Below the pieces are notes generated by a model. The model searched no databases and was not told the origin of the DNA. It saw only the letters and a program-made list of their open reading frames with translations. Both the position numbers and the translations under genes were made by a program. Source: Patescibacteria group bacterium (GTDB lineage: Bacteria; Patescibacteriota; Doudnabacteria; UBA920). Taken from it: a DNA stretch of 64,000 nucleotides. The stretch lies in NCBI GenBank assembly GCA_036726225.1, contig DAIMCS010000001.1, positions 397,856 through 461,855 of the forward strand, written 5' to 3'. Shown one piece after another: positions 6,291 to 58,572 of this stretch. How positions within the stretch are numbered: the first letter of the stretch is position 1; every line of letters starts with the position of its first letter.

Positions 6291-6332
6291 AGTAAGAAAG
6301 TAAGTATGTAAGAATACAAGAATATAAGTATT

Positions 6333-6366
6333 AACTGCTTAGAAAAATTTCTAAGCAGTTTTTTTA
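6333..6366 (+). terminator. rho-independent terminator after ftsZ (AACTGCTTAGAAAAATTTCTAAGCAGTT + T-run)
   Basis: Perfect palindrome followed by TTTTTT. Confidence 0.75.
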
Positions 6367-6405
6367 ACTACTGTATACTTGTGTGCTTGTATTCTTAATT
6401 TACGC

Positions 6406-6434
6406 TTGCAAAATTTCCTCAGGTGTGCTATAAT
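6406..6434 (+). promoter_or_regulatory. sigma70-type promoter TTGCAA-17-TATAAT
   Basis: Near-consensus -35/-10 hexamers with 17-nt spacer upstream of ORF 6623. Confidence 0.55.
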
Positions 6435-7574: not shown

Positions 7575-8021
7575 ATGAAATGCCCTAATTGCCAAAACGA
7601 TGATACTAAAGTGTTAGATAGCAGGCCGGTAGATGAGGGTACAGCTATAAGAAGGCGGCGGGAATGTGAAAAGTGCGAGTTTCGGTTTAGTACTTACGAA
7701 GAAATAGAAATACTCGACCTAACAGTAGTAAAGAAGGACGGCAGCAAGCAAATGTTTTCCAAGGAGAAGCTGGAGCGGGCTATCCGCCTGCCGTTAGACA
7801 AACGACCTCATACAGATGAAACTTTAAGAAAACTCCTTTCCGCCATAGAAATAGAAATCCAGCGCAAAGCCAAAGACAGTGAAATTAAAAGTTCGGAAAT
7901 TGGCGAGATTGTTATGAAGAAACTTAAGAAGGTAGACAAGGTAGCTTATGTGAGGTTTGCGGCAGTATACAGACAGTTTGAGGACGTAGACGAATTTAAG
8001 GAAGAATTAGAAAAATTGTAA
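7575..8021 (+). CDS. nrdR: transcriptional repressor NrdR (Zn-ribbon + ATP-cone)
   Basis: MKCPNCQNDDTKVLDSRPVDEG…RRRRECEKCEFRFSTYEEIE is the canonical NrdR N-terminus. Confidence 0.9.
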   Translation: MKCPNCQNDDTKVLDSRPVDEGTAIRRRRECEKCEFRFSTYEEIEILDLTVVKKDGSKQMFSKEKLERAIRLPLDKRPHTDETLRKLLSAIEIEIQRKAKDSEIKSSEIGEIVMKKLKKVDKVAYVRFAAVYRQFEDVDEFKEELEKL

Positions 8022-8092
8022 ATCAGTGAACAGTGCGCAGTGATCAGTGAATAGAATTTTCACTGTACACCGTCCACTGACCACTGCTCACT
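8022..8092. repeat. imperfect long palindrome containing the GTGATCAGTG/CAGTGCGCAGTG element, between nrdR and nrdJ
   Basis: AATCAGTGAACAGTGCGCAGTGATCAGTGAATAG… pairs with …TTTTCACTGTACACCGTCCACTGACCACTGCTCAC. Confidence 0.55.
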
Positions 8093-8117
8093 TATAAAGA
8101 ATTAACCAAGCAACCAT

Positions 8118-22164: not shown

Positions 22165-22246
22165 ATATTGTCTACTAAATACGAAAGAATCTAAATACTA
22201 AATGGGACAGGGTTTTCGTATTCAGTAGAGGTTATAAAGGAATTTT

Positions 22247-26292: not shown

Positions 26293-26460
26293 ATGGGTGT
26301 ACCAAAAAAACATAAAACCCGTTCGGGGCGTAACCAGCGCAGAAGCCACCATGCTTTATCTGTGAAATCTTTTGCTGTTTGTAAAAATTGCGGGGCTTCA
26401 ACCATGCCTCATTTGCCTTGCAAGAACTGCGGATATTATAAAGGCAGAAAAGTTGTCTAA
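26293..26460 (+). CDS. rpmF: 50S ribosomal protein L32 (bL32); below the 60-aa cutoff of the ORF track
   Basis: MGVPKKHKTRSGRNQRRSHHAL…CKNCG…CKNCGYYKG is the L32 signature with two CxxC pairs. Confidence 0.8.
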   Translation: MGVPKKHKTRSGRNQRRSHHALSVKSFAVCKNCGASTMPHLPCKNCGYYKGRKVV

Positions 26461-26562
26461 GGTTGTATAAAGTATTAGGTATAAGGTATTATGTATAGGG
26501 GTTAAAAACCTTTATACTTGATACGTAATACTTAATACTTTTTTATTTGTGAAATAAAAATT

Positions 26563-27003
26563 ATGGCTAATCGTCATCTATCCCGTACCATTGCTATGCA
26601 GTCCCTTTTTGAATGGGATTTTAACGGACGGAGCGGGGATTTAAAATCCATCACCAAAAACCATATTGACGAATTTAACAGCAAAGGTGACGACACAGCT
26701 TTTATTTTTGACCTTGCGACCGGCGTTGGGAAAAATTTGACCGCCATAGACGAAATAATAGTAAAGCACGCCCCGGAATGGCCAATGGAGCAAATCCCAC
26801 CGGTGGACAGAAATGTCTTGCGGCTGGGAGTATATGAACTAATGTTTTTAAAACAGGTGCCGCCTAAGGTAGTTATTAATGAAGCGGTGGAATTGGGCAA
26901 AACTTTTGGGGGAGAATCTTCCGGCAAGTTTGTAAACGGAGTGCTGGGAGCGCTTTACAAAGAGTTGGGCTTTGAGGAAAACAAAGAGGAAAAACCCGAG
27001 TAA
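26563..27003 (+). CDS. nusB: transcription antitermination factor NusB
   Basis: NusB-like all-helical protein: [17 protein letters not shown]…. Confidence 0.8.
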
Positions 27004-32154: not shown

Positions 32155-32871
32155 ATGAAATTAGGATTTTTGGTAGTGGTAATTTTGGTAGTTGCGTTCG
32201 GCTTGGGGAGCATTATGGACAAGCAGCCTCGGCCTTTCTCAGAAGAAGCGCCAAAGCTCCAGCCACCTCCTGTGGTGGCAACGGTGGAGAGCGCGGAGCG
32301 TCTCGGACATATAAAGCATCTCCAGGAAATTTGGAAATGCGTCGGAACAGACTGCTGGCAAACACGGAGGTTTGCCACGTACGAATGCCGAATGAGCAAC
32401 CGCTTTGCCGAGGTGCGTGAGCTGCACCAATCTCTGTCTTTGGAAAAAGCCATTGTAGTGGATCCAACTGTAGCGGACTTGTTAGTTAGTCCCACAGATC
32501 CACGAATGAATGTGGATATGGAAAAGTTGGAGGGCTTTCGTCAGAGAACCGGCAAGCTGTACGCAGAGCGCCTGGTCAGCGACTTTGAGGACTATGTAGA
32601 CAGAGACAAGCAGTCACTACAGCTGTGTGATCTTCACAACCCTCAAGCCACAGTGAGGCTCAACCTGGACGGTTTGCTGGGTCGTATAATGGAGGTGTCG
32701 GAGGACTCGGGCCTTAAGGGAAAGTTTCCGACCGACCGCGAAATTGGCAATATGGTCGATTTTACTATTGACGAACAGCTACGGCTGTATAAAAGTGGTA
32801 AAAGGACCGCCAGCCAGGTTCGGCTTTATATTGAAGCCTGGTTTAGGGATCCTGACAAATACCTTCCATAA
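32155..32871 (+). CDS. hypothetical membrane-anchored protein (one TM)
   Basis: ORF with GGAGGAGAAGGT RBS. Confidence 0.45.
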   Translation: MKLGFLVVVILVVAFGLGSIMDKQPRPFSEEAPKLQPPPVVATVESAERLGHIKHLQEIWKCVGTDCWQTRRFATYECRMSNRFAEVRELHQSLSLEKAIVVDPTVADLLVSPTDPRMNVDMEKLEGFRQRTGKLYAERLVSDFEDYVDRDKQSLQLCDLHNPQATVRLNLDGLLGRIMEVSEDSGLKGKFPTDREIGNMVDFTIDEQLRLYKSGKRTASQVRLYIEAWFRDPDKYLP

Positions 32872-33088
32872 ATCTGCCAGTTAAGGGAGCGCGCGATGTG
32901 CATTATAATCGCCGCTCCCTCCTTCCAAGTTGTCAGTGAGACTTGTTTTTTCATCCCGTCCTTTGTTTACAAAGAGCGGGAGGAAAATCCTGTACAGGTC
33001 TTGCTGGCAGCTTTGAGGGAAGCGCAAAACATAAACGCCATTAGGGCCTTTTTTGTTTGATTTACAAATTTAATGTAAAATAAAACAT

Positions 33089-35029
33089 ATGCAAAATAAC
33101 CTTGAAAGTTTAGCCAAGCTCGTCCGATATCATTCTTTAGTTTCCACCACAGCAGCAGGCAGCGGGCATCCGACTTCGTCTTTGTCGGCTGCAGATTTAA
33201 TGACAGTTTTAATGTTTGGCACATCGCAGAATCACGCGGAAGAGACTGCGATCACGGAATCATCCGCTTCCGCTAAAGCTTCGGCGGACAGGCGCGGAGA
33301 CGGAGCTTTTTTCCATTCAGATTTAGACAACCACGAAAACCCCAACAATGACCGGTTAATTTTTAGCAAAGGGCATGCCAGCCCTTTGTTTTATGCTTTG
33401 TACGCGGCGGCCGGAAAAATTACAGAAGATGAGCTTAAAACTTTACGCAAATTTGGAAGCAAGCTGGAAGGCCACCCGACTTTGGAATTTAAATATACCG
33501 AAGTACCGACGGGTTCTTTGGGCCAGGGTTTATCAGTCGGCCTGGGTATGGCGCTTAATGCGCGCTTAGAAAAATCTACTTATAAAACTTTTGTTTTGCT
33601 CGGCGACTCGGAGATGGCCGAAGGCAGTGTGTGGGAAGCCATGGCCGCGGCATCACATTCCAATCTTTCCAATCTCGTAGCAATTTTAGATTGCAACCGG
33701 CTGGGCCAAAGAGGCGAGACTATGTATGGCCACCATACGGAAATTTACGAAGCCCGCGCCAAAGCTTTTGGCTGGGAAACCGTGGTGGTGGATGGACATA
33801 ATATTAGCGAGATCGAGAAAGCTTATAAGTTAATAAGCGAATCAGTTAATAAGCCCTTAATGATTATTGGCAAGACTTTGAAAGGCAAAGGCGTATCGTT
33901 CATAGAAGACAAAGAGGGTAAGCACGGAGTGGCGCTTAAGCCGGATGAGTTGGAAAAAGCTTTGGCAGAATTGGGGACGATTGATAAAACGGTGGGGATG
34001 GTAGCAAAACCAGATAATAACTCCCCCCAACCCCCTCTTATTTTAAGAGGGGGTGCCGAAGGCGGGGGAGTTAAATTTACAGACTACCCTAAAGACAAAC
34101 CGGTTTCCACGCGCAAGGCTTATGGCAATATTTTGCCTAGTATAATTGAAAGTTTTACCAATGCCGTGGTGCTGGATGCGGAAGTCAGCAACTCGACTTT
34201 TGCCGAAACTGTGAAAAAAACGCATCCGGAAAAGTTTTTTGAAATGTACATTGCCGAACAAAATATGGTTGGCGCGGCTTTGGGTTTTTCGCGCCGGGGC
34301 AAAATTCCTTTTGTTTCCACTTTTGCCGCGTTTTTGTCCCGCGCTTTTGACCAAATCCGCATGTCCCAGTACGCCAAAGCCAACATTAAGTTTGTCGGCT
34401 CGCACGCAGGCGTTAGCATTGGGGAAGACGGTAGCAGCCAAATGGGTTTGGAAGAAATTGCAATATTTAGAACTTTGCTGGATTCGGTTGTGCTGTATCC
34501 TTCGGACGCAATTTCAGCAGAAAAATTAGTCCACGAGGCGGCCAAGCACCAGGGTAATGTTTATATACAAACAACACGCAAAGATACAGCTATTTTATAT
34601 ACACCTACCGATGAATTTAAAATTGGCGGCTCGCGCGTATTAAAATCATCTTCGACCGATAAAGCTACAGTAGTCGCCGCTGGCGTAACTTTGCACGAAG
34701 CAATGGCTGCTTACGAAGAATTGCAAAAAGAAAATATTAACATCCGGGTAATTGACCTTTATTCTATTAAACCTCTCGATGTTGCCACGCTGCAAAAGGC
34801 TGCAACTGAAACTAAACACCTAATTACAGTCGAAGACCATTTTGTGGAAGGGGGAATTGGCGAAGCGGTTTCGTTTGCGCTCTCTGCTCTGACAGAACCT
34901 AATTTGCATTTTAGTAATTTAGCGGTAAGAAAAATGCCAAAAAGCGGCAAGCCCGAAGAACTTTTGGCATTTGAGGAAATTGATAAAAAGGCTATAATTA
35001 GGGCAGTAAAGCAGATGCTGAATAAGTAA
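33089..35029 (+). CDS. tkt: transketolase, full-length (N- and C-halves fused) with an inserted linker
   Basis: GSGHPTSSLSAADLMTVL, DRLIFSKGHASP, C-half core, EDGSSQMG motif. Confidence 0.9.
   Translation: MQNNLESLAKLVRYHSLVSTTAAGSGHPTSSLSAADLMTVLMFGTSQNHAEETAITESSASAKASADRRGDGAFFHSDLDNHENPNNDRLIFSKGHASPLFYALYAAAGKITEDELKTLRKFGSKLEGHPTLEFKYTEVPTGSLGQGLSVGLGMALNARLEKSTYKTFVLLGDSEMAEGSVWEAMAAASHSNLSNLVAILDCNRLGQRGETMYGHHTEIYEARAKAFGWETVVVDGHNISEIEKAYKLISESVNKPLMIIGKTLKGKGVSFIEDKEGKHGVALKPDELEKALAELGTIDKTVGMVAKPDNNSPQPPLILRGGAEGGGVKFTDYPKDKPVSTRKAYGNILPSIIESFTNAVVLDAEVSNSTFAETVKKTHPEKFFEMYIAEQNMVGAALGFSRRGKIPFVSTFAAFLSRAFDQIRMSQYAKANIKFVGSHAGVSIGEDGSSQMGLEEIAIFRTLLDSVVLYPSDAISAEKLVHEAAKHQGNVYIQTTRKDTAILYTPTDEFKIGGSRVLKSSSTDKATVVAAGVTLHEAMAAYEELQKENINIRVIDLYSIKPLDVATLQKAATETKHLITVEDHFVEGGIGEAVSFALSALTEPNLHFSNLAVRKMPKSGKPEELLAFEEIDKKAIIRAVKQMLNK
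34018..34073. repeat. G/C-rich palindromic mini-element in frame inside tkt (AACTCCCCCC…CCCCCTCTTATTTTAAGAGGGGG…GGGGGAGTT)
   Basis: Encodes NNSPQPPLILRGGAEGGGV in the inter-domain linker; nested hairpins. Confidence 0.55.
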
Positions 35030-35450
35030 ACAGTATACTGTATACAGTAGACAGAATATGCCAATTCAAACTTACAAAGATATTATCGCTTGGCAGAAAT
35101 CACATGAATTAGTGCTTTTTGTTTACCAGCTGACAGAAAAATTTCCGAAGAGTGAGCTCTTTGGGTTAGTCAGTCAAATGAGAAGATGCGCTGTTTCGAT
35201 ACCGTCAAATTTAGCAGAAGGTTTCAAAAGAAAACATCTAAATGACTCTCTGCATTTTTATAATATTTCCCAAGGTTCTTTAGAAGAATTGCGGTATCAA
35301 TTGTTACTTTCTAAAGACTTAAAATATATTAAAGACGAAGAATATCAGAAAGCTGAAACATTAGCTGACGAAGCAGCAAAATTAATTTATTCTTGGATAA
35401 AAGGACATAATTAATACTTGTATACAGTCTACTGTGTACTGTTTACTAAA
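35030..35450. mobile_element. IR-bounded mini-cassette carrying a four-helix-bundle (23S-rRNA-IVS-type) gene
   Basis: Left AAACAGTATACTGTATACAGTAGACAG and right CTTGTATACAGTCTACTGTGTACTGTTTAC are inverted copies of one motif flanking the gene exactly. Confidence 0.5.
35058..35414 (+). CDS. four-helix-bundle protein (TIGR02436 / 23S rRNA intervening-sequence protein family)
   Basis: IAWQKSHELVLFVYQLTEKFPKSE…IPSNLAEGF signature. Confidence 0.75.
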   Translation: MPIQTYKDIIAWQKSHELVLFVYQLTEKFPKSELFGLVSQMRRCAVSIPSNLAEGFKRKHLNDSLHFYNISQGSLEELRYQLLLSKDLKYIKDEEYQKAETLADEAAKLIYSWIKGHN

Positions 35451-35452
35451 AT

Positions 35453-36391
35453 ATGGATCGAAATTTAGCTTTAGAGTTCGTGCGAGTAACCGAAGCCGCG
35501 GCAATTGCGGCTTCAAAGTGGGTGGGGAAGGGCGAGGCCAAAAAAGCGGACGGCGCGGCCGTGGACCAAATGCGCGCGCGCTTTAACCAAATAGATTTTT
35601 CCGGCAAAGTAGTTATTGGCGAAGGTAGTAAAGATGAAGCGCCGGAACTTTATACCGGCGAAATTGTCGGCACGGGTAAAGGGCCTAAGGTTGACCTTGC
35701 GGTGGATCCGCTTGAATGCACAGACAGTGTTGCCTATGGCCGCTACAATGCTATTGCAGTCATTGCCGCCGGCGCTCGCGGTTCACTTTTAAACGCGCCG
35801 GACACTTATATGGAAAAATTGGCTGTTGGCCCTAAAGCTGTTAAGGCCGTAAAAATGGGAGCACCGGTTAAGACAAATATAGAGAAGGTTGCCAAAGCTT
35901 TAGGCAAAAAGGTGGGTGATGTAACCGTGTGCGTTATGGACCGAGACCGCCACAAAGATTTAATCGCGCAAATTAGAAAAACCGGAGCGCGTGTTCGTTT
36001 AATAACGGACGGTGACGTGGCCGGAGCAATTGCGCCGTGTATGCCGGATAGCGGGATTGATTTGTTGATGGGGATCGGCGCCAGCGCTGAAGCAGTCTTG
36101 GCCGCCACAGCAATAAAAATTTTAGGCGGACAAATTTTTGCCCGGTTTAGCCCGCTAAAAGATGCTCACCATCAGCTTATAAAAAAACACGGATTGAATG
36201 ATAAAAAAGTTTATTCGGCCAACGATCTCGCCAAAGGAAAAATTTTAACTTTCACTGCCACTGGAATTATAGACGGCCCAATGCTTGAGGGAGTTCGATA
36301 CGTAGGTAACACAATCATTACGCATTCAATTGTCATCCGCGGCCAGAGTGGAACTATTAGATATGTAACAACTCATCATAAGGAAAAATAA
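35453..36391 (+). CDS. glpX: fructose-1,6-bisphosphatase class II (GlpX)
   Basis: LALEFVRVTEAAAIAASKWVGKGE…, metal-binding DPLECTD. Confidence 0.85.
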   Translation: MDRNLALEFVRVTEAAAIAASKWVGKGEAKKADGAAVDQMRARFNQIDFSGKVVIGEGSKDEAPELYTGEIVGTGKGPKVDLAVDPLECTDSVAYGRYNAIAVIAAGARGSLLNAPDTYMEKLAVGPKAVKAVKMGAPVKTNIEKVAKALGKKVGDVTVCVMDRDRHKDLIAQIRKTGARVRLITDGDVAGAIAPCMPDSGIDLLMGIGASAEAVLAATAIKILGGQIFARFSPLKDAHHQLIKKHGLNDKKVYSANDLAKGKILTFTATGIIDGPMLEGVRYVGNTIITHSIVIRGQSGTIRYVTTHHKEK

Positions 36392-36738
36392 TGAGACCGA
36401 GAAATCGCAATTTGCCACCCCTGGGAGGAGAAATTGTTGGTGGCCATATCCCGGTAGAAGATAATGATGTCTTGATTCCATGGATTGAAACTTTACACGG
36501 ATTGGGTTTTTCTGAAAATGATATACAATATATTGCAAAATTGAACTTCAAAGAATATGAAAGGACTAAGTTAGGAGGAGTTGCTAAGTCTAAGGAGTAC
36601 GAATTCGGTTTAAATCTTGCGAAAAGCTTGAGGGAAAAAGAAGAGAAAAGATTGAACAGAGAACTTACAAGAGAAGAAAAAATAGAATTGTTTAAAAGTA
36701 TTATTAAAGATCTTTTTAAAGGAAATGAAGAAGACTAA
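36391..36738 (+). CDS. hypothetical protein
   Basis: ORF start overlaps the glpX stop. Confidence 0.4.
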   Translation: MRPRNRNLPPLGGEIVGGHIPVEDNDVLIPWIETLHGLGFSENDIQYIAKLNFKEYERTKLGGVAKSKEYEFGLNLAKSLREKEEKRLNRELTREEKIELFKSIIKDLFKGNEED

Positions 36739-36751
36739 ACTCGCATAAATT

Positions 36752-37804
36752 ATGAACATCGAAGAACTCAACAAAATAGCAAAACAAATGGTAGCAGAGG
36801 GAAAAGGTATTTTAGCCGCGGATGAAAGTGAAAAAACAGTTGGCAAACGTTTTGCTTCCATTAATTTAGAGAACAATGAGCTTAACCGCAAAGCTTTCAG
36901 GGAAATGCTGCTCACAGCCCCGGGCGAGGCACAATTTATTAGCGGCGTGATTTTGCATGACGAAACTATTCGGCAATCTTTGGACGACGGCCGAAGTTTT
37001 GTTTCCATTCTTCAAGCCGAAGGCATTTTGCCGGGAATTAAAGTCGACGCGGGTTTAATTGACGATCCTGCATCGCCAACAGAAAAATTAACCAAGGGCT
37101 TAGACGGCTTAGATGAAAGATTAAAAGAATATGTGTCCTTGGGAGCAAAATTTTGTAAATGGCGCTCTGTAATCACCATTGGAGATGGTATCCCAACGGA
37201 TACAAACATTCGCCAAAATGCTAAAGATTTGGCAGCGTATGCTTTGGTTTGCCAGCAAAACGGGCTGGTGCCTATGGTTGAGCCCGAAGTTTTATTCGAC
37301 GGCAACCATACTATGGCCCAGGCCGAAGAGGCGAGTGAGAAAATTTTAACCGCCCTGTTTGAAGAGCTTGCAAAAGCCGGGGTTGCTGTAGAAGGCATTA
37401 TTTTAAAAACCAGCATGGTTTTGCCCGGTAAAGAATCGGCGGAAAAAGCGACTCCCGGGCAAGTTGCAGAAGCAACCTTAAGAGTTTTTAAAAAAGTTTT
37501 GCCAAAAGGGCTGGCCGGAGTAGCTTTTTTGTCCGGCGGACAAAAAGATTTGCAGGCTACCGAGAATTTAAATGCTATAAATAAGCAAAAAAACCTACCC
37601 TTACCGCTGACTTTTTCCTTTGCCCGCGCGCTCCAGGACGGCGCCACTAACGCCTGGCAGGGAAAAGCCGAAAACTTAAAACAGGCCCAAAATATTTTTT
37701 CCCACCGCCTTAAAATGAGCAGCCTGGCTTCTTTGGGAAAATATTTACCGGAACTTGAGCAGGGCGTTGTAGCATCTACAGATGCAACGGCCACACAGGA
37801 TTAA
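36752..37804 (+). CDS. fba: fructose-bisphosphate aldolase class I
   Basis: GKGILAADES…, Schiff-base Lys region. Confidence 0.85.
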   Translation: MNIEELNKIAKQMVAEGKGILAADESEKTVGKRFASINLENNELNRKAFREMLLTAPGEAQFISGVILHDETIRQSLDDGRSFVSILQAEGILPGIKVDAGLIDDPASPTEKLTKGLDGLDERLKEYVSLGAKFCKWRSVITIGDGIPTDTNIRQNAKDLAAYALVCQQNGLVPMVEPEVLFDGNHTMAQAEEASEKILTALFEELAKAGVAVEGIILKTSMVLPGKESAEKATPGQVAEATLRVFKKVLPKGLAGVAFLSGGQKDLQATENLNAINKQKNLPLPLTFSFARALQDGATNAWQGKAENLKQAQNIFSHRLKMSSLASLGKYLPELEQGVVASTDATATQD

Positions 37805-37831
37805 AGCAATATTAAATCTTAAACTTTTTTA

Positions 37832-38536
37832 ATGGCTTACACAAAAAAACCTAAATTCAAACCCATTGAGCATTTGGAAAAAGTACGCAAGGGAAATGTG
37901 AAAAAAATTCCGCAATGGATGATAAAAAAAATTAACGAGGAATTTACCAAAGGTTTTAAATTTTTAAGCAAGTACAAAAAGGCTGTTAGCATTATGGGTA
38001 GCGCCAGAACGGGGCTAAACCCTTATGTGTACGAAGAAGCCACGCAATTGGCAAATATGCTTTCCAAGTCCGGTTTTGCAATAATTACCGGCGGCGGCCC
38101 GGGCGTTATGGAAGCCGCTAACAAAGGCGCCCACGAAGCTAACGGGCAATCTATAGGCATAAACATCCGCCTGCCCTTTGAACAGCGCACCAACCAGTAT
38201 GTAAAAGAGTCCGAAGATTTTTCTTTCTTTTTTACCCGCAAAGTTATGCTGGAGTATGCTTCGCATATTTACGTTTTTTTCCCCGGCGGTTTTGGCACGC
38301 TGGATGAGTTTTTTGAAATGGTTACTTTAACTCAAACGCACAAAATTAAACCCGTGGCAATTATTTTAGTATACAAAGATTTTTGGCAGCCGCTTTTGGA
38401 CTGGATAAAGACTACTTTGTACGAAAAGTCGCACGCCATAGACGAAAAAGATATGGAAATTTACAGGTTAGTAGACAGCGCGGAAGAAGCCTACGAACAA
38501 ATTCAGGAACTTTCAAAAATAACAGACTTCTTTTAG
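37832..38536 (+). CDS. LOG-family (TIGR00730) cytokinin riboside 5'-monophosphate phosphoribohydrolase-like protein
   Basis: GGGPGVMEAANKGA and PGGFGTLDE motifs. Confidence 0.8.
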   Translation: MAYTKKPKFKPIEHLEKVRKGNVKKIPQWMIKKINEEFTKGFKFLSKYKKAVSIMGSARTGLNPYVYEEATQLANMLSKSGFAIITGGGPGVMEAANKGAHEANGQSIGINIRLPFEQRTNQYVKESEDFSFFFTRKVMLEYASHIYVFFPGGFGTLDEFFEMVTLTQTHKIKPVAIILVYKDFWQPLLDWIKTTLYEKSHAIDEKDMEIYRLVDSAEEAYEQIQELSKITDFF

Positions 38537-39012
38537 ACTTTACGGAGTACGGAAATATACGGATATACGGAAATGCAATCAAACAACAGAGCCAAAAAGG
38601 ATATTGTTTATGCTGATTTAAGCGGAAAGATTATCGGTGTAATTTTTGATGTATATAATCAATTAGGTTACGGACATGCGGAAATAACTTATCAAAAAGC
38701 GCTTTGTGTAGCTTTTTCCCAAAATAAGATAAAATTTGAGCAGCAATTATATGCACCAGTGATGTTTGGCGGAAAGGTCGTTGGTAAGAATTATTTTGAT
38801 TTTTTAATTGAAGGAAAGATTGTTTTAGAAATTAAAAGAGGCGACTATTTTGTAAAAGCTCATATTGATCAAGTCTATAAATACTTAGTTAGTAAAGATT
38901 TAAAGTTAGGAATTTTGGCCTATTTTGCTCCCAGGATAGTGCACTTGAAACGGGTTGTTAATTTAAAGTAATCCGTATATCCGTAACGTTCCCTCCGTAT
39001 TCCGTAAAGTCT
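38537..39012. mobile_element. IR-bounded mini-cassette carrying a GxxExxY-family gene
   Basis: Left GACTTTACGGAGTACGGAAATATACGGATATACGGA and right TCCGTATATCCGTAACGTTCCCTCCGTATTCCGTAAAGTC are inverted repeats. Confidence 0.5.
38573..38971 (+). CDS. GxxExxY protein (PD-(D/E)xK-like, 23S-IVS-associated family)
   Basis: IIGVIFDVYNQLGYGHAEITYQKAL… matches the GxxExxY family pattern. Confidence 0.75.
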   Translation: MQSNNRAKKDIVYADLSGKIIGVIFDVYNQLGYGHAEITYQKALCVAFSQNKIKFEQQLYAPVMFGGKVVGKNYFDFLIEGKIVLEIKRGDYFVKAHIDQVYKYLVSKDLKLGILAYFAPRIVHLKRVVNLK

Positions 39013-39861
39013 ATGAAGCCATCAAATTTAAATGCCAGAATTTTTCTCGACAGCGGCGACCCGGGGGAGACCCGGGCAGTTTTGTCTTTACTTGGTTTTT
39101 TAGACGGCCAAACTACGAATCCTTCACTTATTGCAAAAAATCCTAAAACCGCGGGCAAAAAATTTTCATCTGACGAGCTGCTTAAATTTTACAGCGGCGT
39201 GGTAAAAGATGTCTCGGAAATTATTCCGGAAGGCAGCGTGTCAGTGGAAGTGTACGCAGATGCAAACACCACAGCTGAAGAAATGTTTGAGCAGGGGAAG
39301 GAATTTAATGCCTGGATACCCAATGCGCATATTAAATATCCCACCACTTCAGCAGGCTTAAAAGCCGCTGAATTGAGCGTAAAAGAAGGTATGAGGGTGA
39401 ATATGACCCTGGTTTTTTCCCAGGAACAGGCTGCGGCGGTTTATGCGGCAACAAAGGGGGCTAAAAAGGGCCAGGTTTTTGTTTCCCCGTTTATTGGCAG
39501 GCTGGATGACAGGGGAGAGAACGGTATGGACTTAATAGCTAGCATAATCAAAATGTATGAGTCAGGGGACGGGCACGTAGAGGTCCTTACTGCCAGTGTG
39601 AGATCTAAAGACCACATTTTTAAAGCCATTCGACTTAAAAGCGACATTATTACAGCGCCGCTAAATGTATTGAAAGAGTGGGCAGAGGCCGGGTTGCAAT
39701 TACCAAACGAAAATTTTGTGTATGAACCAAAAAATTTAAAACTAATTGAGTACAAAGACATAGCTTTAGATAAAGTTTGGCAAGAGTATAATATTCATCA
39801 CGAGCTTACAGAAAAAGGTTTAGAAAAATTTGCACAAGATTGGAATAATTTAATTCATTGA
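39013..39861 (+). CDS. tal: transaldolase / fructose-6-phosphate aldolase family
   Basis: RIFLDSGDP…GQTTNPSLIAKN… motifs. Confidence 0.8.
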   Translation: MKPSNLNARIFLDSGDPGETRAVLSLLGFLDGQTTNPSLIAKNPKTAGKKFSSDELLKFYSGVVKDVSEIIPEGSVSVEVYADANTTAEEMFEQGKEFNAWIPNAHIKYPTTSAGLKAAELSVKEGMRVNMTLVFSQEQAAAVYAATKGAKKGQVFVSPFIGRLDDRGENGMDLIASIIKMYESGDGHVEVLTASVRSKDHIFKAIRLKSDIITAPLNVLKEWAEAGLQLPNENFVYEPKNLKLIEYKDIALDKVWQEYNIHHELTEKGLEKFAQDWNNLIH

Positions 39862-39896
39862 AAGAGGATTCCCCTCTGTCAGAGGGGAATCCTCTT
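39862..39896 (+). terminator. terminator after tal (AAGAGGATTCCCCTCTGTCAGAGGGGAATCCTCTT)
   Basis: 15-bp perfect stem; member of the CCCCTC…GAGGGG hairpin family. Confidence 0.75.
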
Positions 39897-39954
39897 AACA
39901 CTCTAAATAAAAAACAACCCCGATATTAATCGCGGTTGTTTTTTATTTGTAAAT

Positions 39955-40689
39955 TTACTTACCCCACGCAGCTTTAAAATCTGTCCTGGCTTTTTCTGCG
40001 GCGGCCTTAAAATCAGCTAAGGCTTTTTCCATAGCCTGTTTTCGGGCAGTAATTATTGCCGCGACATTTCTTTTTTCTATGGCAGCTCTGGCCGCGGCAA
40101 ATGCGTCTTGGGCAGCCTTCATACTTGCCTGAAAGGTTGTTTTTATAGTCTGGGGGCTTACTCCGGCAGCGCAATCCTGGACTGCTTTAGCTTTAGCCGC
40201 CTTTACCGCGTTTGTAAACGCAGTAACTGCGGAGCTGACAGCGGCTTTACGCGCGGCTATGGCCTCATCCATGCTTTTGCGGAAAGCAGATTTGGCTGCA
40301 TCCATAGCGGCTTTACGCGCGGCTATGGCAGCTTCCATGGCCCTTTTATACGCAACTACAGCCTGTTTTTGTGCATCTGTCGTTGCTTTGCTTTCTAGCG
40401 CGGCATATTCTTTGTTGCGGTTTTCAATCCATCTGTCCCGCACTTCTTTTAATTTCGCATCCCGGGCGCTGCGGTTTTCCGCCAACTTTTGCTGCCTTTC
40501 AGAAACTTTGGCATCAATTTGCCCTTTGCGCTCCTGCATTCTTTGGTCAACCTTGGCTGTTGCACCCGTAAGCCTTGTACAAAACATTCTGTCGGTTTCT
40601 GTAGTTTGGGCCAAAGCTATAGCAGGCAAAACAGCCTGCATAGCTAAAGCCGCTGCAAATGCAAAACTTAAAGTTTTTTTAGAATTCAT
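39955..40689 (-). CDS. secreted Ala/Lys-rich coiled-coil (apolipoprotein-like) protein with tandem 22-aa repeats
   Basis: Signal peptide MNSKKTLSFAFAAALAMQAVLPAIALAQ; tandem 66-bp DNA repeat (GGCTTTACGCGCGGCTATGGC twice). Confidence 0.55.
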   Translation of the reverse strand: MNSKKTLSFAFAAALAMQAVLPAIALAQTTETDRMFCTRLTGATAKVDQRMQERKGQIDAKVSERQQKLAENRSARDAKLKEVRDRWIENRNKEYAALESKATTDAQKQAVVAYKRAMEAAIAARKAAMDAAKSAFRKSMDEAIAARKAAVSSAVTAFTNAVKAAKAKAVQDCAAGVSPQTIKTTFQASMKAAQDAFAAARAAIEKRNVAAIITARKQAMEKALADFKAAAEKARTDFKAAWGK

Positions 40690-53992: not shown

Positions 53993-55048
53993 CTAGCCGC
54001 GGGACATTTTTTCATATACTTTTTTTGTTTCTTCCAGCATTTTTTCCCGGGTAAACAGCTTTGACCGCGCAAGGGCCTTTTGGGATAACAGGTCGGCCAG
54101 TTCCTGGTCCGTAATTATTTTATCTACCGCTTCTACCAGGGCTTTAGGGTTTTCCGGTTCCACTAACAACCCGGCATCGCCCAAAGCTTCCGGAATGCCG
54201 CCAACTCTGGTTGCCACAATCGGCAAGCCGGCGGCCATGGCTTCTAGAACTACAAAAGGGAAGCCTTCTTTTCTGGAAGGTACGGCTAAAATGTCAAAAG
54301 CTTTTAAGTAAATTTGGGCATCTTTTACAAACCCCAGGTATTTAATGTTGTCTGTGGATTTTTTTTCATCCGACACGTTACCAATAATCACGGTTAAACA
54401 GTTGGACGACAGCGCTTTTTCCATTATATCCAAACCTTTGGTTTTGTACTCGTTAGCTATGGTCACCACAAGTTCTTTGTCTAAAGGCAGCCCAAGTTTT
54501 TGTCTGGCTTCCTGCCGCGGTAAAAAATTTATCTGGTCAATGCCGTTATGGATGGTGGAAATTTTGTCAGGCAAGGTTAAGTTATAGTCCATTGCGGACT
54601 TTCTGTCTGCTTCGGACACGCAAATAATGTAGTCGCGGTAAGAAGAAGCCGCTTTTTCCAAAGCTAAATAAAAAGATTTTAAAATCCAAGGCAGCGGCTC
54701 GTTGAAAATAAACCCGTGCGCGGTAAATACGACTTTAGTTTTAAGGCCTATGGCGGCAAAGCTGCCCACCACTCCGGCTTTGCTGGAATTTAAATGGACA
54801 ATCTCGGGCTTGTAGCTTTTAATTAGCTGCCGAATTTCCCAAACCGCCATAAAATCGTGCCAGGGGTTAATGGCTCGCCTTAAATGTTTTAGCGTAAAAG
54901 TATAAAGGCCCAAAGCGCGGGCTTCGTCAAACAGCTTGGGACTTTCCTCACCGGCGGCAATTGCGCCTTCAAAATGTTTGGCCAGATCCAGTGTGTATTT
55001 TTGGGCCCCGCCACCGTCAGCTTGGGTTATTATGTATAGTATTTTCAT
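53993..55048 (-). CDS. glycosyltransferase family 4 (GT-B)
   Basis: N-terminal GGAQ… and C-terminal EGFPFVVLEAMAAGLP motif. Confidence 0.8.
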   Translation of the reverse strand: MKILYIITQADGGGAQKYTLDLAKHFEGAIAAGEESPKLFDEARALGLYTFTLKHLRRAINPWHDFMAVWEIRQLIKSYKPEIVHLNSSKAGVVGSFAAIGLKTKVVFTAHGFIFNEPLPWILKSFYLALEKAASSYRDYIICVSEADRKSAMDYNLTLPDKISTIHNGIDQINFLPRQEARQKLGLPLDKELVVTIANEYKTKGLDIMEKALSSNCLTVIIGNVSDEKKSTDNIKYLGFVKDAQIYLKAFDILAVPSRKEGFPFVVLEAMAAGLPIVATRVGGIPEALGDAGLLVEPENPKALVEAVDKIITDQELADLLSQKALARSKLFTREKMLEETKKVYEKMSRG

Positions 55049-55206
55049 TTGATGATTTAAAAATAGAATATTTAAAGATAGAAAATTGCGTAATCTTTAA
55101 ATCTTTAAATTTTCAATCTTTCAATTATTGTTGATTGATTTATTGCCGTATTTATGGTAATTTATCTTAGTATAAAGTATAACGAATAAAGTATAAAGGC
55201 CTAAAA

Positions 55207-56286: not shown

Positions 56287-57063
56287 ATGAAATTATTAAG
56301 TTTAAACATTTGGGGCGCAAGCCAAGGTAAAATATTTTTTGACTATATTGCACAACAATCGGTAAATACCGATATTTTTTGTTTTCAGGAAGTTTTTGAA
56401 GGGCCAAAGGAGTTTAAATTCGATCCTCTAGCAGACGGCACTCATCCGCGCTTGTTTACGGAATTGTCAGAAGCTTTAAAAGATTTTGTAGGCTTTTATG
56501 CGGTTACTTCTAAACACCATAGTTTGAAAACCGCTGTGCAAAATTTGTCCCACGGATTGGCTATTTTTGTGCATAAAAAACATGTGGTCACAGAGCAAAA
56601 TTTTAGTTTAATCCACGGTTCTCAAGCCCAAGAGGTAAAGTTAGACTTTACTAATTTGCCTTGTATACTTCAGTACGCACATGTTGGGAATTTAAATGTA
56701 TTTAATTACCACGGCATTCCTATGCCCGGGGACAAGTTAGATACCAAGGAGAGAATTGCGGCCTCACAAAAAATTTTGGAAGTTATGGCAAAAACATCCG
56801 GCCCTAAAATTTTATGCGGGGATTTTAATTTAATGCCTGACACAGAGAGCGTGCGTATGTTTGGGGAGGCAGGATTTAAGAATTTAATTAAAGATTTTAA
56901 AATTACCAACACCCGCAACGAAATTTCGTGGAATATGTACAGCAATAAGCAGTCTTTTGCGGACTTTACTTTTATTTCGCCCGAAATAAAAGTAAAGTCC
57001 TTTGAAGTGCCGTATAATTTAGTTTCCGATCATTTACCAATGGTAATGCAATTTCAAATTTAA
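56287..57063 (+). CDS. endonuclease/exonuclease/phosphatase (EEP) family protein
   Basis: LSLNIWG N-terminus, C-terminal SDHLP motif. Confidence 0.65.
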   Translation: MKLLSLNIWGASQGKIFFDYIAQQSVNTDIFCFQEVFEGPKEFKFDPLADGTHPRLFTELSEALKDFVGFYAVTSKHHSLKTAVQNLSHGLAIFVHKKHVVTEQNFSLIHGSQAQEVKLDFTNLPCILQYAHVGNLNVFNYHGIPMPGDKLDTKERIAASQKILEVMAKTSGPKILCGDFNLMPDTESVRMFGEAGFKNLIKDFKITNTRNEISWNMYSNKQSFADFTFISPEIKVKSFEVPYNLVSDHLPMVMQFQI

Positions 57064-57091
57064 AGATTAAAAAATAGAAAATTTAAACATT

Positions 57092-57484
57092 ATGAAATAC
57101 CAACAATTTGAAGATTTGCCAGTTTGGCAGCAATCGAGGCAGTTTGTTAACCAGGTTTATGGATTAATAGAACATAATCAAAAATTCAGCCGCGATTTTT
57201 CTTTGGTAGATCAGTTAAAACGAGCAGCTTTTTCTATTATGCTCAATATAGCTGAAGGATTTGAACGCGGAAGCAATAAGGAATTTGCAAATTTTATTAA
57301 TATAGCCAAAGGTTCCGCCGGGGAAGTCCGTTCAATCCTATATATACTTTTAGATCGTCGGTATGTTTCAGCAGATTTTTTTGAGGCCTCAAAAAAAGAA
57401 ATTTTGGAAATTTCTTCCAGTCTTTCTAATTTTAGAAAATATTTAGTAAACCATAATGAGTATAAAAAACTCCTGCCCCGATAA
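57092..57484 (+). CDS. four-helix-bundle protein (TIGR02436 / 23S-IVS family), second copy
   Basis: LPVWQQSRQFVNQVYGL…MLNIAEGFERGS…AKGSAGEVRS. Confidence 0.75.
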   Translation: MKYQQFEDLPVWQQSRQFVNQVYGLIEHNQKFSRDFSLVDQLKRAAFSIMLNIAEGFERGSNKEFANFINIAKGSAGEVRSILYILLDRRYVSADFFEASKKEILEISSSLSNFRKYLVNHNEYKKLLPR

Positions 57485-57513
57485 TCTTTAAATTTTAAAT
57501 CTTTTATTTTTAA

Positions 57514-58572
57514 ATGCTCAAACTACTATTTTGCGGACTTAAATACGAATATGGTAAGGCTTTTGCAGGGCTTTCTTTTGAGCATCAAAATTTTTTTGAG
57601 GTCTTAAGTCAAATACAGGGCATTGAAGCGGAAATGTTTGCGGTAGATGAAGTAATGCAGTCAGTTGGCCGGGACGAGATGAATAAAAAACTTATCCAAA
57701 AGGTGGAAGCGGACAAGCCCGATCTGCTGTTTTGTTTTCTTTTTACCGAAGAGCTAAAAAAAGAAACTATAGAGCATATTACAAAAAAAACTTCCACTAA
57801 AACTTTTAATTGGTTTGCCGATGACCATTGGCGTTTTCCCATCTATTCAAAATATTGGGCGCCATTGTTTACCGCTGTTTCCACTACCGACTCTCAGGCA
57901 GTTGAAAAATATAAAACAGTTGGCGTAGACGCTATCAAAACCCAGTGGGCGGCAAATGTAAACTTATATAAACCTAGTCAGTATACTGTAGACAGTAAAC
58001 AGTATGTAGATATTACTTTTGTGGGGAAAAATTATGGCAACAGAGCCGAATACATACAAACGCTAAAAGATAATCACATTTCTGCAGAAGGATATGGCAG
58101 TGGCTGGGAGAAGGGAAGGGTTGATTTTACCGATATGCTTGAAATTTTTAGTAATTCCAAAGTAAATTTAAATTTTACGGAAAGTTATTTTAACTGGCCG
58201 AAACAGCTAGTAAAGTTATTTGTAAAAAAAGAATTTGGCAGGTATTACTTTAATGCTCATCATCTGGTATCAAATTTCCAGTCCTTGCTGGGAGCCAAGC
58301 GCAAACAAATAAAAGGCAGGATTTTTGAAGTTCCTGCTTGTGGTGGTTTTCTTATTACAGGGGATGCAGATAATTTACGTGACTATTATGTTGAGGACAA
58401 AGAAATTGTAATTTTTAAAGACAAAAATGACTTAGTCGAAAAATGTAAATATTACTTAGCTCACGACAGTGAGAGGCAAGCTATAGCTAAGGCCGGATAT
58501 GAACGGACAATAAAAGAGCACACTTACGAGCAAAGGTTTAAGGAAATTTTTAAGACCTTAGATCTAATGTAA
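57514..58572 (+). CDS. CgeB-like / DUF3880-type glycosyltransferase
   Basis: C-terminal GT-B-like half …FEVPACGGFLITGDADNLRDYY…. Confidence 0.55.
   Translation: MLKLLFCGLKYEYGKAFAGLSFEHQNFFEVLSQIQGIEAEMFAVDEVMQSVGRDEMNKKLIQKVEADKPDLLFCFLFTEELKKETIEHITKKTSTKTFNWFADDHWRFPIYSKYWAPLFTAVSTTDSQAVEKYKTVGVDAIKTQWAANVNLYKPSQYTVDSKQYVDITFVGKNYGNRAEYIQTLKDNHISAEGYGSGWEKGRVDFTDMLEIFSNSKVNLNFTESYFNWPKQLVKLFVKKEFGRYYFNAHHLVSNFQSLLGAKRKQIKGRIFEVPACGGFLITGDADNLRDYYVEDKEIVIFKDKNDLVEKCKYYLAHDSERQAIAKAGYERTIKEHTYEQRFKEIFKTLDLM

Follow-up and report, generated by a model that had tools for sequence, protein, structure and literature searches.

Small genes between inverted tandem repeats at operon junctions of a Doudnabacteria genome: probable selfish hairpin cassettes

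What are small genes from two large protein families, both labelled "function unknown" for decades and one of them named for the intervening sequences (IVS) of rRNA, doing between the metabolic genes of a bacterium? The question is raised by a stretch of 64,000 nt (hereafter "the window") from a Patescibacteria group bacterium (Doudnabacteria; contig DAIMCS010000001.1, positions 397,856-461,855, forward strand), in which three small open reading frames (ORFs) each sit at a junction between genes of an operon. Two of them encode four-helix-bundle (4HB) proteins of the rRNA IVS family, and the third encodes a GxxExxY protein. No rRNA gene is present in the 64-kb window, where an Rfam scan matched two tRNAs only. 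An initial annotation of the window had proposed that each gene and the inverted repeats around it form a minimal selfish cassette. The evidence described below supports this proposal. With a probability of roughly 0.6, the three loci are selfish hairpin cassettes of the IVS type, inserted as discrete units of ~420-480 bp at junctions of co-directional operons and expressed by operon read-through.

The three ORFs lie where the initial annotation had placed them and belong to the families it had assigned, with profile scores above the cut-offs. The first 4HB gene (4HB1) scores 133.6 bits for PF05635 (cut-off 33.8) and 123.7 bits for TIGR02436 (cut-off 24), and the GxxExxY gene scores 93.2 bits for PF13366 (cut-off 22) and 93.8 bits for TIGR04256 (cut-off 35). 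The second 4HB gene (4HB2) is 31% identical to 4HB1; its scores are given in Table 1. All repeat sequences quoted in the initial annotation are likewise present in the window, and inverted repeats do bracket each gene, but two of the pairs had been exchanged: the TACGG arms flank the GxxExxY gene, and the AT-rich arms flank 4HB2. Each cassette occupies one co-directional operon junction, with the left arm lying over the upstream stop codon, followed by a promoter-less, low-GC ORF and a right arm that ends 0-5 nt before the next start codon. Given that the left arms contain the upstream stop codon and the right arms reach the next start codon, the cassette is the entire intergenic spacer.

Table 1. 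Positions of the three cassettes and of hairpins without an ORF in the window.
Feature	Position	Strand	Description
Cassette 1 left arm	35025-35053	+	Tandem heptamers ACAGTAT ACTGTAT ACAGTAG ACAG; holds the tkt stop codon TAA (35027-35029)
4HB1 gene	35058-35414	+	"23S rRNA IVS protein" family, PF05635/TIGR02436, 118 aa
Cassette 1 right arm	35419-35447	+	Stops 5 nt short of the glpX start codon
Cassette 2 left arm	38534-38571	+	Four TAC-GGA units, TACGGAG TACGGAAATA TACGGATA TACGGA; holds the TAG stop codon of the upstream LOG-type gene
GxxExxY gene	38573-38971	+	GxxExxY / PDDEXK_3, PF13366/TIGR04256, 132 aa
Cassette 2 right arm	38972-39013	+	Final base overlaps the tal start codon
Cassette 3 left arm	57051-57093	+	AT-rich, AAAGATT-type units
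4HB2 gene	57092-57484	+	130 aa; PF05635 114 bits, TIGR02436 111.1 bits (cut-offs 33.8 and 24)
Cassette 3 right arm	57481-57514	+	Abuts the glycosyltransferase start codon at 57514
ORF-less hairpin	6291-6397		8-mer arms of AAGAATAC units, 44-nt arms; -44.4 kcal/mol for folded 6280-6410
ORF-less hairpin	8022-8092		(CAGTGAN)x4, 7-nt loop, (NTCACTG)x5; between co-directional genes; -29.9 kcal/mol for folded 8010-8125
ORF-less hairpin	22171-22231		GxxExxY-type arms, TAC-TAA and TAC-GAA units
ORF-less hairpin	26465-26540		Inverted heptamers GTATTAG / CTTAATA; -39.6 kcal/mol for folded 26440-26570
ORF-less hairpin	55047-55128		AT-rich; TTTAAAGAT units like the cassette 3 arms

The arms of cassette 1 form a 29-nt inverted repeat with 83% complementarity. 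The left arm is scored by Tandem Repeats Finder (TRF) as 4.9 copies of a 7-nt period, and 4HB1 is directly preceded by ACAGTAT ACTGTAT ACAGTAG ACAGAAT ATG. The arms of cassette 2 (GACTTTACGGAGTACGG.../...CCGTATTCCGTAAAGTC) form a duplex of -57.9 kcal/mol and are homologous to the arms of cassettes in two related genomes (L016 and L011; individual comparison loci are given as L numbers throughout). Those of cassette 3 (TTTAAAGATT/AATCTTTAAA) contain inverted repeats of 19 nt at 95% and 34 nt at 79%. Period-7 arrays were detected by TRF at 35025-35058, 35414-35447, 57487-57515 and 8024-8051 of the window. When the flanks were shuffled 2000 times with dinucleotide composition preserved, the observed score was reached 0 times for 4HB1, 0 times for the GxxExxY gene and 3 times for 4HB2. 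Across the 64 kb, no long inverted repeats other than the three cassette pairs have arms spaced 350-450 nt apart. Predicted RNA folds of the whole units close with a terminal stem around the ORF (z = -5.2, -4.7 and -2.4 for cassettes 1, 2 and 3, respectively), and for cassette 1 this stem is found in both the minimum free energy and the centroid structures.

Cassettes 1 and 2 lie in a co-directional run of genes (33089-39861) encoding transketolase (tkt), the 118-aa 4HB protein, GlpX fructose-bisphosphatase, an orphan 115-aa ORF (orf115), a class I aldolase (fba), a LOG-type protein, the 132-aa GxxExxY protein and transaldolase (tal). The first strong terminator-type hairpin of this run is at 39905-39948, 3' of tal. 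Cassette 3 separates an ORF of the exo/endo/phosphatase (EEP) family from a glycosyltransferase gene. Given that the cassettes are in the sense orientation of the host operon, read-through is the likely source of their expression; a promoter and terminator scan of 32800-40100 found no cassette-specific signals. The GC content at third codon positions (GC3) is 26-28% in the cassette genes, compared with 41-46% in their neighbors in the tkt-tal cluster and 34-48% in the genes around cassette 3; for 4HB1 the comparison is 26% versus 44% in the neighboring genes. The cassette genes are thus foreign in base composition. The absence of a Shine-Dalgarno sequence was considered as a further mark of the cassettes and rejected; it is uninformative because just 8 of 38 genes in this genome use one. 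A search of every window ORF found no additional 4HB or GxxExxY copies.

Evidence that the cassettes are discrete units came from the equivalent junctions of relatives. A scan of species-representative genomes with the aldolase identified 21 loci from the Candidate Phyla Radiation (CPR), with 61-77% identity, labelled Peregrinibacteria, Peribacteria, Doudnabacteria or Saccharibacteria in their records. The order tkt-glpX-fba-LOG-tal is at least partly kept in 13 of these. The tkt/glpX junction contains a 4HB gene in the window and in L017 (a 4HB gene is also found upstream of glpX in L011), a frameshifted GxxExxY gene in L015, and a spacer of 6-7 nt in L009. Leaving aside L014, in which 7969-8070 is a run of N, the LOG/tal junction contains a GxxExxY gene in the window, L001, L008, L011 and L016, contains a 4HB gene in L012 and L017, and is empty (7-27 nt) in L013 and L018. 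At the EEP/glycosyltransferase junction, L185 carries an orthologous 4HB gene that is 69% identical to 4HB2 and has similar AAAGATT-type arms, and L186, L187 and L188 are empty. In other CPR relatives, the same junction is filled by a member of the other family or by an orthologous cassette that has inverted repeats of its own.

The remaining junctions of the tkt-tal cluster also differ in content. The fba/LOG junction is a 27-nt spacer in the window; L009 has a 4HB gene there, L015 has the remnant of a GxxExxY gene, and ORF-less hairpins occur in L012, L014 and L016. The glpX/fba junction is occupied by at least three unrelated 4HB subfamilies (L007/L013; L009; L012/L014), by orphan ORFs, or by a 12-19 nt spacer (L015, L018). 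A single 4HB subfamily (56-69% identity) is found at three different junctions. A profile search of the CPR loci and the window recovered 18 cassette genes, all encoded on the strand of the operon. The initial annotation had pointed to related genomes lacking the whole unit as the place to look for support, and such empty sites exist for all three window junctions. It had also named a contrary account, in which relatives carry the genes at the same positions without inverted repeats, empty sites do not occur, and the repeats are just shared terminator or ribosome-binding-site contexts; this does not describe these loci.

Alleles of single sites in filled, empty and remnant states were found in cyanobacteria. 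A protein-level search of plasmids returned 34 records, mostly from Nostoc, Calothrix and Trichormus. On plasmid C of Trichormus variabilis, a 4HB gene lies between CAGAAGT/CAGGAGT heptamers, and the Scytonema NIES-4073 locus is filled likewise. In seven other plasmids (Nostoc PCC 7120 pCC7120beta and those of N. linckia, Aulosira, Microchaete, two Tolypothrix and N. carneum), 428 bp are missing between flanks that are 98% identical. In the empty allele, AAAAAGTAA is directly followed by TTAACAAAT; in the filled allele, the same two sequences are separated by TAAATCAGAATTCAG, the 4HB gene and GAGTTCTTCTTTGTAA, in that order. The 428-bp insertion is located exactly at the upstream stop codon, with a 4-bp GTAA repeat at both borders. 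The allele of Nostoc C052 is a remnant that consists of the left-arm heptamers and ~100 nt of the ORF only. In a second Nostoc operon, pNsp_b has an empty allele, a 4HB gene lies between genes B and C in pNPUN02, and a different 4HB gene with G-rich arms lies between genes C and D in pNsp_c. In Nostoc C057, genes A and B of this operon are separated by an ORF-less hairpin whose arms are CAGGAGT units. No border repeat accompanies the alleles of this second operon. In Picosynechococcus PCC 7003, a 4HB gene with GGAGATAA arms lies between cas10 and cmr3; the site is empty in PCC 7002, with flanks 93% identical. Finally, one complete arm-ORF-arm unit (L177:551-969) recurs elsewhere in other genomic contexts with 78-82% nucleotide identity. 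Together with the empty sites in CPR genomes, these data demonstrate that the gene and its arms are inherited and moved as one unit, and that, in the course of evolution, operon junctions have acquired cassettes, lost them, kept them in decayed form and exchanged one for another. The proposal of minimal selfish cassettes is thereby strengthened.

Arms of the same style also occur without a gene. Table 1 lists five ORF-less hairpins in the window; the loop of the one at 6291-6397 holds a terminator-like inner hairpin. An ORF-less hairpin of L016 carries, at another junction, the TACGGA arms of that genome's own GxxExxY cassette. Such hairpins are common between co-directional genes, occurring in L012, L014 and L016 as well as in the window, and they are consistent with an alternative model in which the arrays are host regulatory or RNA-stability elements (regulator sites, or hairpins for processing, attenuation or coupling) and the small genes are accessory residents. 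Arms that cover the stop codon before the cassette and the start codon after it are ideally placed for coupling, and the cassettes are stable within the species of the window. Paired tandem-repeat sites in Geobacter have been interpreted as sites for the global regulators IHF/HU (PMC2700814), and Xanthomonas repeat loci have been reported in unusually stable genomic regions (PMC4692102). However, such a host-serving role is difficult to reconcile with clean filled and empty alleles whose flanks are 93-98% identical, with decayed remnants and frameshifted or truncated copies (L015, L181), or with the foreign GC3 of the cassette genes. Moreover, families and subfamilies substitute for each other at one junction, and arm design tracks the gene family rather than the host or the junction. 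We consider host-serving punctuation of operons an unlikely explanation of the three loci.

Two other arrangements of arms are worth recording beside these hairpins. Lone, unpaired heptamer or octamer arrays lie just upstream of start codons at otherwise empty junctions (55169-55198 of the window, L018 3813-3833 and L013 7868-7895), with units AGTATAA x4, AAGAATA AGGAATT AAGAATT, and ATAGGAC-type, respectively. Such arrays may be what is left of arms, or else an unrelated trait of this lineage, in which Shine-Dalgarno sequences are sparse. In some cassettes (L011 6770-6883; L012 8226-8324; L129), the left arm and ORF are followed by a second, direct copy of the left arm, a short loop and the right arm, such that a full ORF-less hairpin comes after the ORF.

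Is this gene-in-hairpin anatomy general? A metagenome scan with close relatives as the 4HB query recovered 80 loci with 4HB genes 40-62% identical; rRNA is absent from all 80. Flank statistics were computed for the 69 unique cassettes with sufficient flank, taking the best duplex between the 80 nt upstream and the 80 nt downstream of the gene. The mean duplex is -43.3 kcal/mol, compared with -23.6 kcal/mol for mismatched flank pairs and -24.3 kcal/mol for other ORFs of the same loci. Duplexes of -30 kcal/mol or stronger were found for 83% of the 4HB cassettes versus 23-25% of the controls (p = 4e-21 and 2e-19). The upstream neighbor is co-directional in 55 of 58 cases (95%) and the downstream neighbor in 46 of 54, and the median gaps on the two sides (52 nt and 70 nt, respectively) are approximately the length of an arm. 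A census of the two families and their flanks, which had been suggested in the initial annotation, thus reveals strong inverted repeats around most 4HB relatives, and TAC-NNN arms around GxxExxY genes in CPR genomes and in contigs labelled Bacteroidetes. The three window loci belong to a general class of small-gene cassettes carried in the loops of hairpins built from inverted tandem units. Two co-directional tRNA genes flank one of the 4HB cassettes, whose arms are TTTCAGC-type heptamers (L086 2387-3041), such that stable-RNA operon spacers other than those of rRNA are also used. No relatives were found among viral contigs searched with the GxxExxY protein.

The two families differ in how their arms are built. 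The unit of 4HB arms varies in almost every element (for example, ACAGTAT, GCAAACA, GTTGTAA, GGAGTTAA, TAGTAAA, CAGTAGT, GGGTCCA and GGGAATG). Among strongly periodic left arms, the dominant periods are 7 nt (16 arms) and 8 nt (7 arms), and no array of this type was found in 160 control windows within ORFs. All 30 strongly periodic 4HB arm units contain AG, versus 20.7 expected. The idea that the heptamers provide stop codons in all frames was rejected; the units GGATACAA, GGGTCCA and GGGAATG contain no stop codon. GxxExxY arms consist of about four units of TAC plus three variable bases, and the variable triplet is constant over the units and both arms of one element. The triplet is GGA in the window, L016 and L011, TAA in L001 and L008, and CAA/TAA in L015, at a different junction. 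Arms of TACGAA, TACAAA or TACTAA flank GxxExxY genes between co-directional metabolic genes in Bacteroidetes-labelled and unlabelled contigs. Cross-pairing of GxxExxY arms between elements yields three compatibility groups. The initial annotation had described the repeats as private to each gene. This is accurate for the 4HB arms but not for the GxxExxY arms, which have a common TAC-NNN design across genomes and fall into few cross-compatible types.

Pairing of 4HB arms across elements suggests rapid change of the arms. A left and right arm of the same element pair with a mean of -38.8, while arms of different elements pair with -47.8 when the proteins are >75% identical, with -26.6 at 60-75% identity, and with about -18 to -23 below 50% identity. 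Given that cross-compatibility is near background below ~75% protein identity while own arms match, the arms turn over much faster than the protein. Matching despite turnover could come from selection acting on a hairpin of RNA or DNA, from arm-to-arm repair within a hairpin or cruciform, or from frequent re-creation of arms. The variation of 4HB arms from element to element is also what would be seen if genes inserted into pre-existing host hairpins, such that the stems are older than the insertion and the "private" repeats are derived from the target. The IVS of rRNA replace the loops of helices, and ORF-less hairpins are found at comparable junctions. However, empty alleles contain spacers of just 3-27 nt with no hairpin (L009, L013, L015, L018, L179, L180, L182). 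The TAC-NNN design is constant across junctions, in both CPR and Bacteroidetes-labelled contigs, an AG core is common to 4HB arm units, and a whole arm-ORF-arm unit recurs elsewhere at ~80% identity. Insertion of genes into older host hairpins is accordingly a highly improbable account.

A different interpretation of the arms is that they are the terminal inverted repeats of a DNA transposon resembling a miniature inverted-repeat transposable element (MITE), with the transposase encoded elsewhere; the 4HB and GxxExxY genes would then be passive cargo, and the RNA stem would be irrelevant. The inverted repeats are indeed terminal, units such as L177:551-969 have discrete borders, ORF-less derivatives occur, arm mismatch types are strand-symmetric, and one allele pair has a possible 4-bp border repeat. 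Interpretation of these similarities is complicated by the diversity of the arms: 4HB arm sequences differ between almost all elements, even inside one genome, such that a single trans-acting transposase could not recognize all of them. Arm design is tied to two small-gene families from CPR bacteria to cyanobacteria and Bacteroidetes-labelled contigs, which would be unexpected for random cargo. The orientation relative to the host operon is 95% fixed, no multi-copy family of near-identical elements is seen, and target-site duplication is inconsistent. Thus, of the features that define transposons and MITEs, terminal inverted repeats are present, whereas a consistent target-site duplication and near-identical copies with a cognate transposase are not. 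A MITE-type transposon with passive cargo is, in our assessment, a rather unlikely origin for the cassettes.

Some 4HB relatives are found inside cas operons, and there are weak matches to bAvd (PF22296, 44 bits) and NF033474 (46.9 bits), which could suggest that the 4HB genes are the Avd component of a diversity-generating retroelement, or part of a defense or toxin-antitoxin system. The NF033474 score is below its cut-off of 80, and neither a reverse transcriptase nor a template/variable repeat is found near 4HB1, whose neighbors are tkt and glpX. A PADLOC search of the three cassette proteins and the orf115 product returned zero defense-system matches, and there is no partner gene. These data leave an Avd, defense or toxin-antitoxin function with very little credibility. 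The 4HB cassettes observed within CRISPR-Cas loci occupy the gap between cas10 and cmr3 of a type III-B operon (L176, the PCC 7003 plasmid) or lie, as two copies, beside cas2 and a CRISPR array (L143/L153). Cassettes in such positions may explain earlier reports of the Pfam family as "cas-associated".

How might selfish cassettes at operon junctions be tolerated and maintained? The arms would pair into a stem of 20-40 bp within the polycistronic RNA. Stems of this length in a transcribed spacer are expected substrates of RNase III, which may cut the cassette stem as it does in the homologous ORF-bearing IVS of rRNA. Such a cut would release the cassette, and the host could then tolerate the insertion. 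Each encoded protein probably acts on the arms of its own element, which would serve the maintenance or spread of that element. The GxxExxY protein has an intact G34xxE37xxY40 motif and an intact D76...E86xK88 nuclease triad, and all six residues (G34, E37, Y40, D76, E86 and K88) are invariant across 60 homologues. When its AlphaFold2 model (predicted local distance difference test score 90.9) was compared with known structures using Foldseek, the best matches were to the Cas4 protein SSO0001 (E 1.7e-5), lambda-type exonucleases, splicing endonucleases and Hjc, a resemblance at the level of the PD-(D/E)XK fold only. The protein is therefore a predicted PD-(D/E)XK nuclease with a catalytic D...ExK, for which TAC-NNN arrays may be the site of cleavage or homing. 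Among solved structures, 4HB1 is closest to that of the pentameric XCC0516 (PDB 2GSC, five chains; phmmer E 2.2e-20, residues 7-104), and a 4HB ring may bind the periodic units of the arms.

Several observations weigh against selfish cassettes of this kind. RNase III cleavage of operon cassettes is an extrapolation from the rRNA case, and the 4HB protein has no catalytic motif. The window contains no near-identical second copy of a cassette and no recognizable transposase or integrase, and none adjoins the cassettes. Target-site duplication is inconsistent among the filled and empty alleles: one clean pair shows the 4-bp GTAA repeat, but a second pair has no such repeat. Contigs from the species of the window (those with identical GlpX, including JGI Ga0137465_1000001) keep cassettes 1 and 2 or end before the junctions; given this lack of polymorphism, nothing points to recent movement. 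Of the three arm pairs, the AT-rich one of cassette 3 is energetically weak and the weakest (-16 kcal/mol, z = -2.4). Expression of 4HB1 could be driven independently of the operon from 34971-34998, where a 10/12 promoter-like match lies in a region rich in chance matches. Lastly, transition mismatches in 50 well-aligned 4HB arm pairs are divided evenly between 70 sense-strand G·U and 65 A·C (p = 0.73). A sense-strand G·U bias as the mark of an RNA stem was thus discarded, since its absence neither supports nor excludes selection at the RNA level; arm complementarity may be kept at the DNA level, or the arms may simply be young. A signature of the RNase III gene was not found in the window.

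Other features of the same junctions and their neighborhoods lie outside the cassette design. In the window, the glpX/fba junction is filled by orf115 (36391-36738), which overlaps the glpX stop codon and has a GC3 of 28%, like the cassettes. It has no flanking inverted repeat and no Pfam or PADLOC match. In relatives, this site is occupied by 4HB genes or other orphan ORFs, and orf115 may be another foreign junction-dwelling gene. Pfam scans of small junction ORFs assigned no family to orf115 or to ORFs in L001, L008, L014, L016 and L017, the sole match being a PIN domain in L013. Long GC-rich hairpins without tandem units are found at other junctions of the CPR operon (L011 4133-4222; L001 7050-7205; L016 4235-4446; L011 5316-5635; L007 6725-7069), with energies down to -125 kcal/mol for the folded spacers containing them. 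At L007 9264-9521, a stand-alone 85-aa ORF that is GIY-YIG-like by eye (MFYVYIL...YIGST...) lies between the arms of a perfect 19-nt inverted repeat (AATATATTCAGGCACCAAA) without tandem periodicity; judging from its sequence, this ORF may be a third type of cargo with flanking inverted repeats. Just upstream of cassette 3, a perfect 19-bp hairpin with a 2-nt loop (GGACTTTACTTTTATTTCG / CGAAATAAAAGTAAAGTCC, 56961-57000) is contained within the coding sequence of the EEP-family ORF (56287-57063), whose stop codon follows ~60 nt later. The transketolase ORF (33089-35029) encodes a single fused protein of 646 aa, with N- and C-terminal halves joined by the glycine-rich stretch PQPPLILRGGAEGGGV.

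The constant gene-in-hairpin anatomy makes both families a testable class of selfish elements. It is also relevant for annotation and operon biology, in that essential metabolic genes and cas genes have their stop and start codons covered by the 20-40 bp stem of an insert. Tractable organisms are available in Xanthomonas (XCC0516), the Picosynechococcus PCC 7003 / 7002 pair, and the Nostoc plasmids. In the literature searched, which excluded subscription journals, no report was found linking 4HB or GxxExxY genes to flanking repeat arrays, or describing such cassettes, outside rRNA.

There are parallels between the operon cassettes and the IVS of rRNA in Leptospira, Coxiella burnetii and CPR bacteria, where flanking inverted repeats pair into a stem whose loop carries an ORF of the PF05635/S23p family. 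In the Coxiella IVS, which RNase III excises, GACAGAT heptamers precede an ORF of the 4HB family; the copy number of this IVS varies between strains, its ORF is decaying, and its ribosome-binding site is poor (PMC4990558). In both cases the tandem heptamers are just upstream of the ATG (GACAGAT x3 and GACAGAA in Coxiella, ACAGTAG ACAGAAT in the window), distribution is sporadic, ORFs decay, and ribosome-binding sites are weak or absent. One important difference is location, given that the cassettes are in the spacers of mRNA operons rather than an rRNA helix, both in the window and in the relatives (0 of 80 loci with rRNA). A second is that the cassettes include another cargo family, GxxExxY, with its own arm design; a survey of CPR rRNA insertions found 22 PF05635 ORFs and zero PDDEXK_3 (PMC11270868), and the description of GxxExxY in the initial annotation as a family best known from 23S IVS finds no confirmation there. 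In addition, ORF-less copies of the operon elements are scattered between genes. Excision by RNase III has been demonstrated for rRNA IVS and is predicted for the operon cassettes.

The GxxExxY cassettes also resemble free-standing homing endonuclease genes, in which a small nuclease gene (here with D...ExK) lies at conserved sites between conserved genes, with a sporadic distribution and a tendency to decay. Unlike homing endonuclease genes, the cassettes have flanking inverted tandem arrays, the 4HB protein lacks a nuclease motif, and the GxxExxY protein is a nuclease by prediction from its fold. Another parallel in architecture is with repetitive extragenic palindromic (REP) sequences, their REP-associated tyrosine transposases (RAYTs) and the hairpin-forming REP doublets called REPINs: one small gene lies between inverted short repeats, and ORF-less hairpin doublets are intergenic, typically just past stop codons. 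The cargo is different, given that a RAYT is an HUH/Y1 transposase and the cassettes carry a four-helix bundle or a PD-(D/E)XK nuclease, as judged from Pfam and NCBIfam scans. The arms also differ from REP, being tandem arrays of 7-8 nt units rather than a single palindrome, and they vary between elements of one genome.

The ORF-less elements have possible counterparts among intergenic heptamer arrays with units of 7-8 nt between aligned ORFs, including the short tandemly repeated repetitive (STRR) sequences of cyanobacteria. GGGAATC and GGGGAYT heptamers in Xanthomonas and Nostoc are transcribed and are located between aligned ORFs and near stop codons, where convergent pairs are frequent (PMC4692102); in these respects they resemble cassette arms. 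Xanthomonas repeat #15 lies between bccP (XCC0517) and XCC0516, over the start codon of XCC0516, and the 4HB family is unmentioned in that study (PMC4692102). XCC0516, the gene that abuts this repeat, is the solved 4HB homologue. In Geobacter metallireducens, 24, 21 and 8 pairs of opposite-strand sites with tandem 7-9 nt repeats have been described, for example between proB and proA (PMC2700814). The unit of the class 3 Geobacter sites, MTYCTGA, is the reverse complement of a Nostoc 4HB arm unit. Earlier studies treated heptamer arrays as G-quadruplex motifs, typing markers or regulator sites, and none of these studies connected them with 4HB or GxxExxY genes or with filled and empty alleles. 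The cassette anatomy offers one explanation for the heptamers of the Coxiella IVS, the heptamer pairs of Xanthomonas and Nostoc, and the paired sites of Geobacter. More tentatively, a widespread but unrecognized class of bacterial hairpin elements might have the 4HB and GxxExxY proteins as its cognate factors for maintenance or mobility, with the STRR sequences, the Xanthomonas GGGAATC "G-quadruplex" repeats, the Geobacter paired sites and short rRNA IVS as its ORF-less forms; in this possible parallel to RAYT and REPIN, the protein (a ring-shaped four-helix bundle or a minimal PD-(D/E)XK nuclease) would read the periodic units of the arms.

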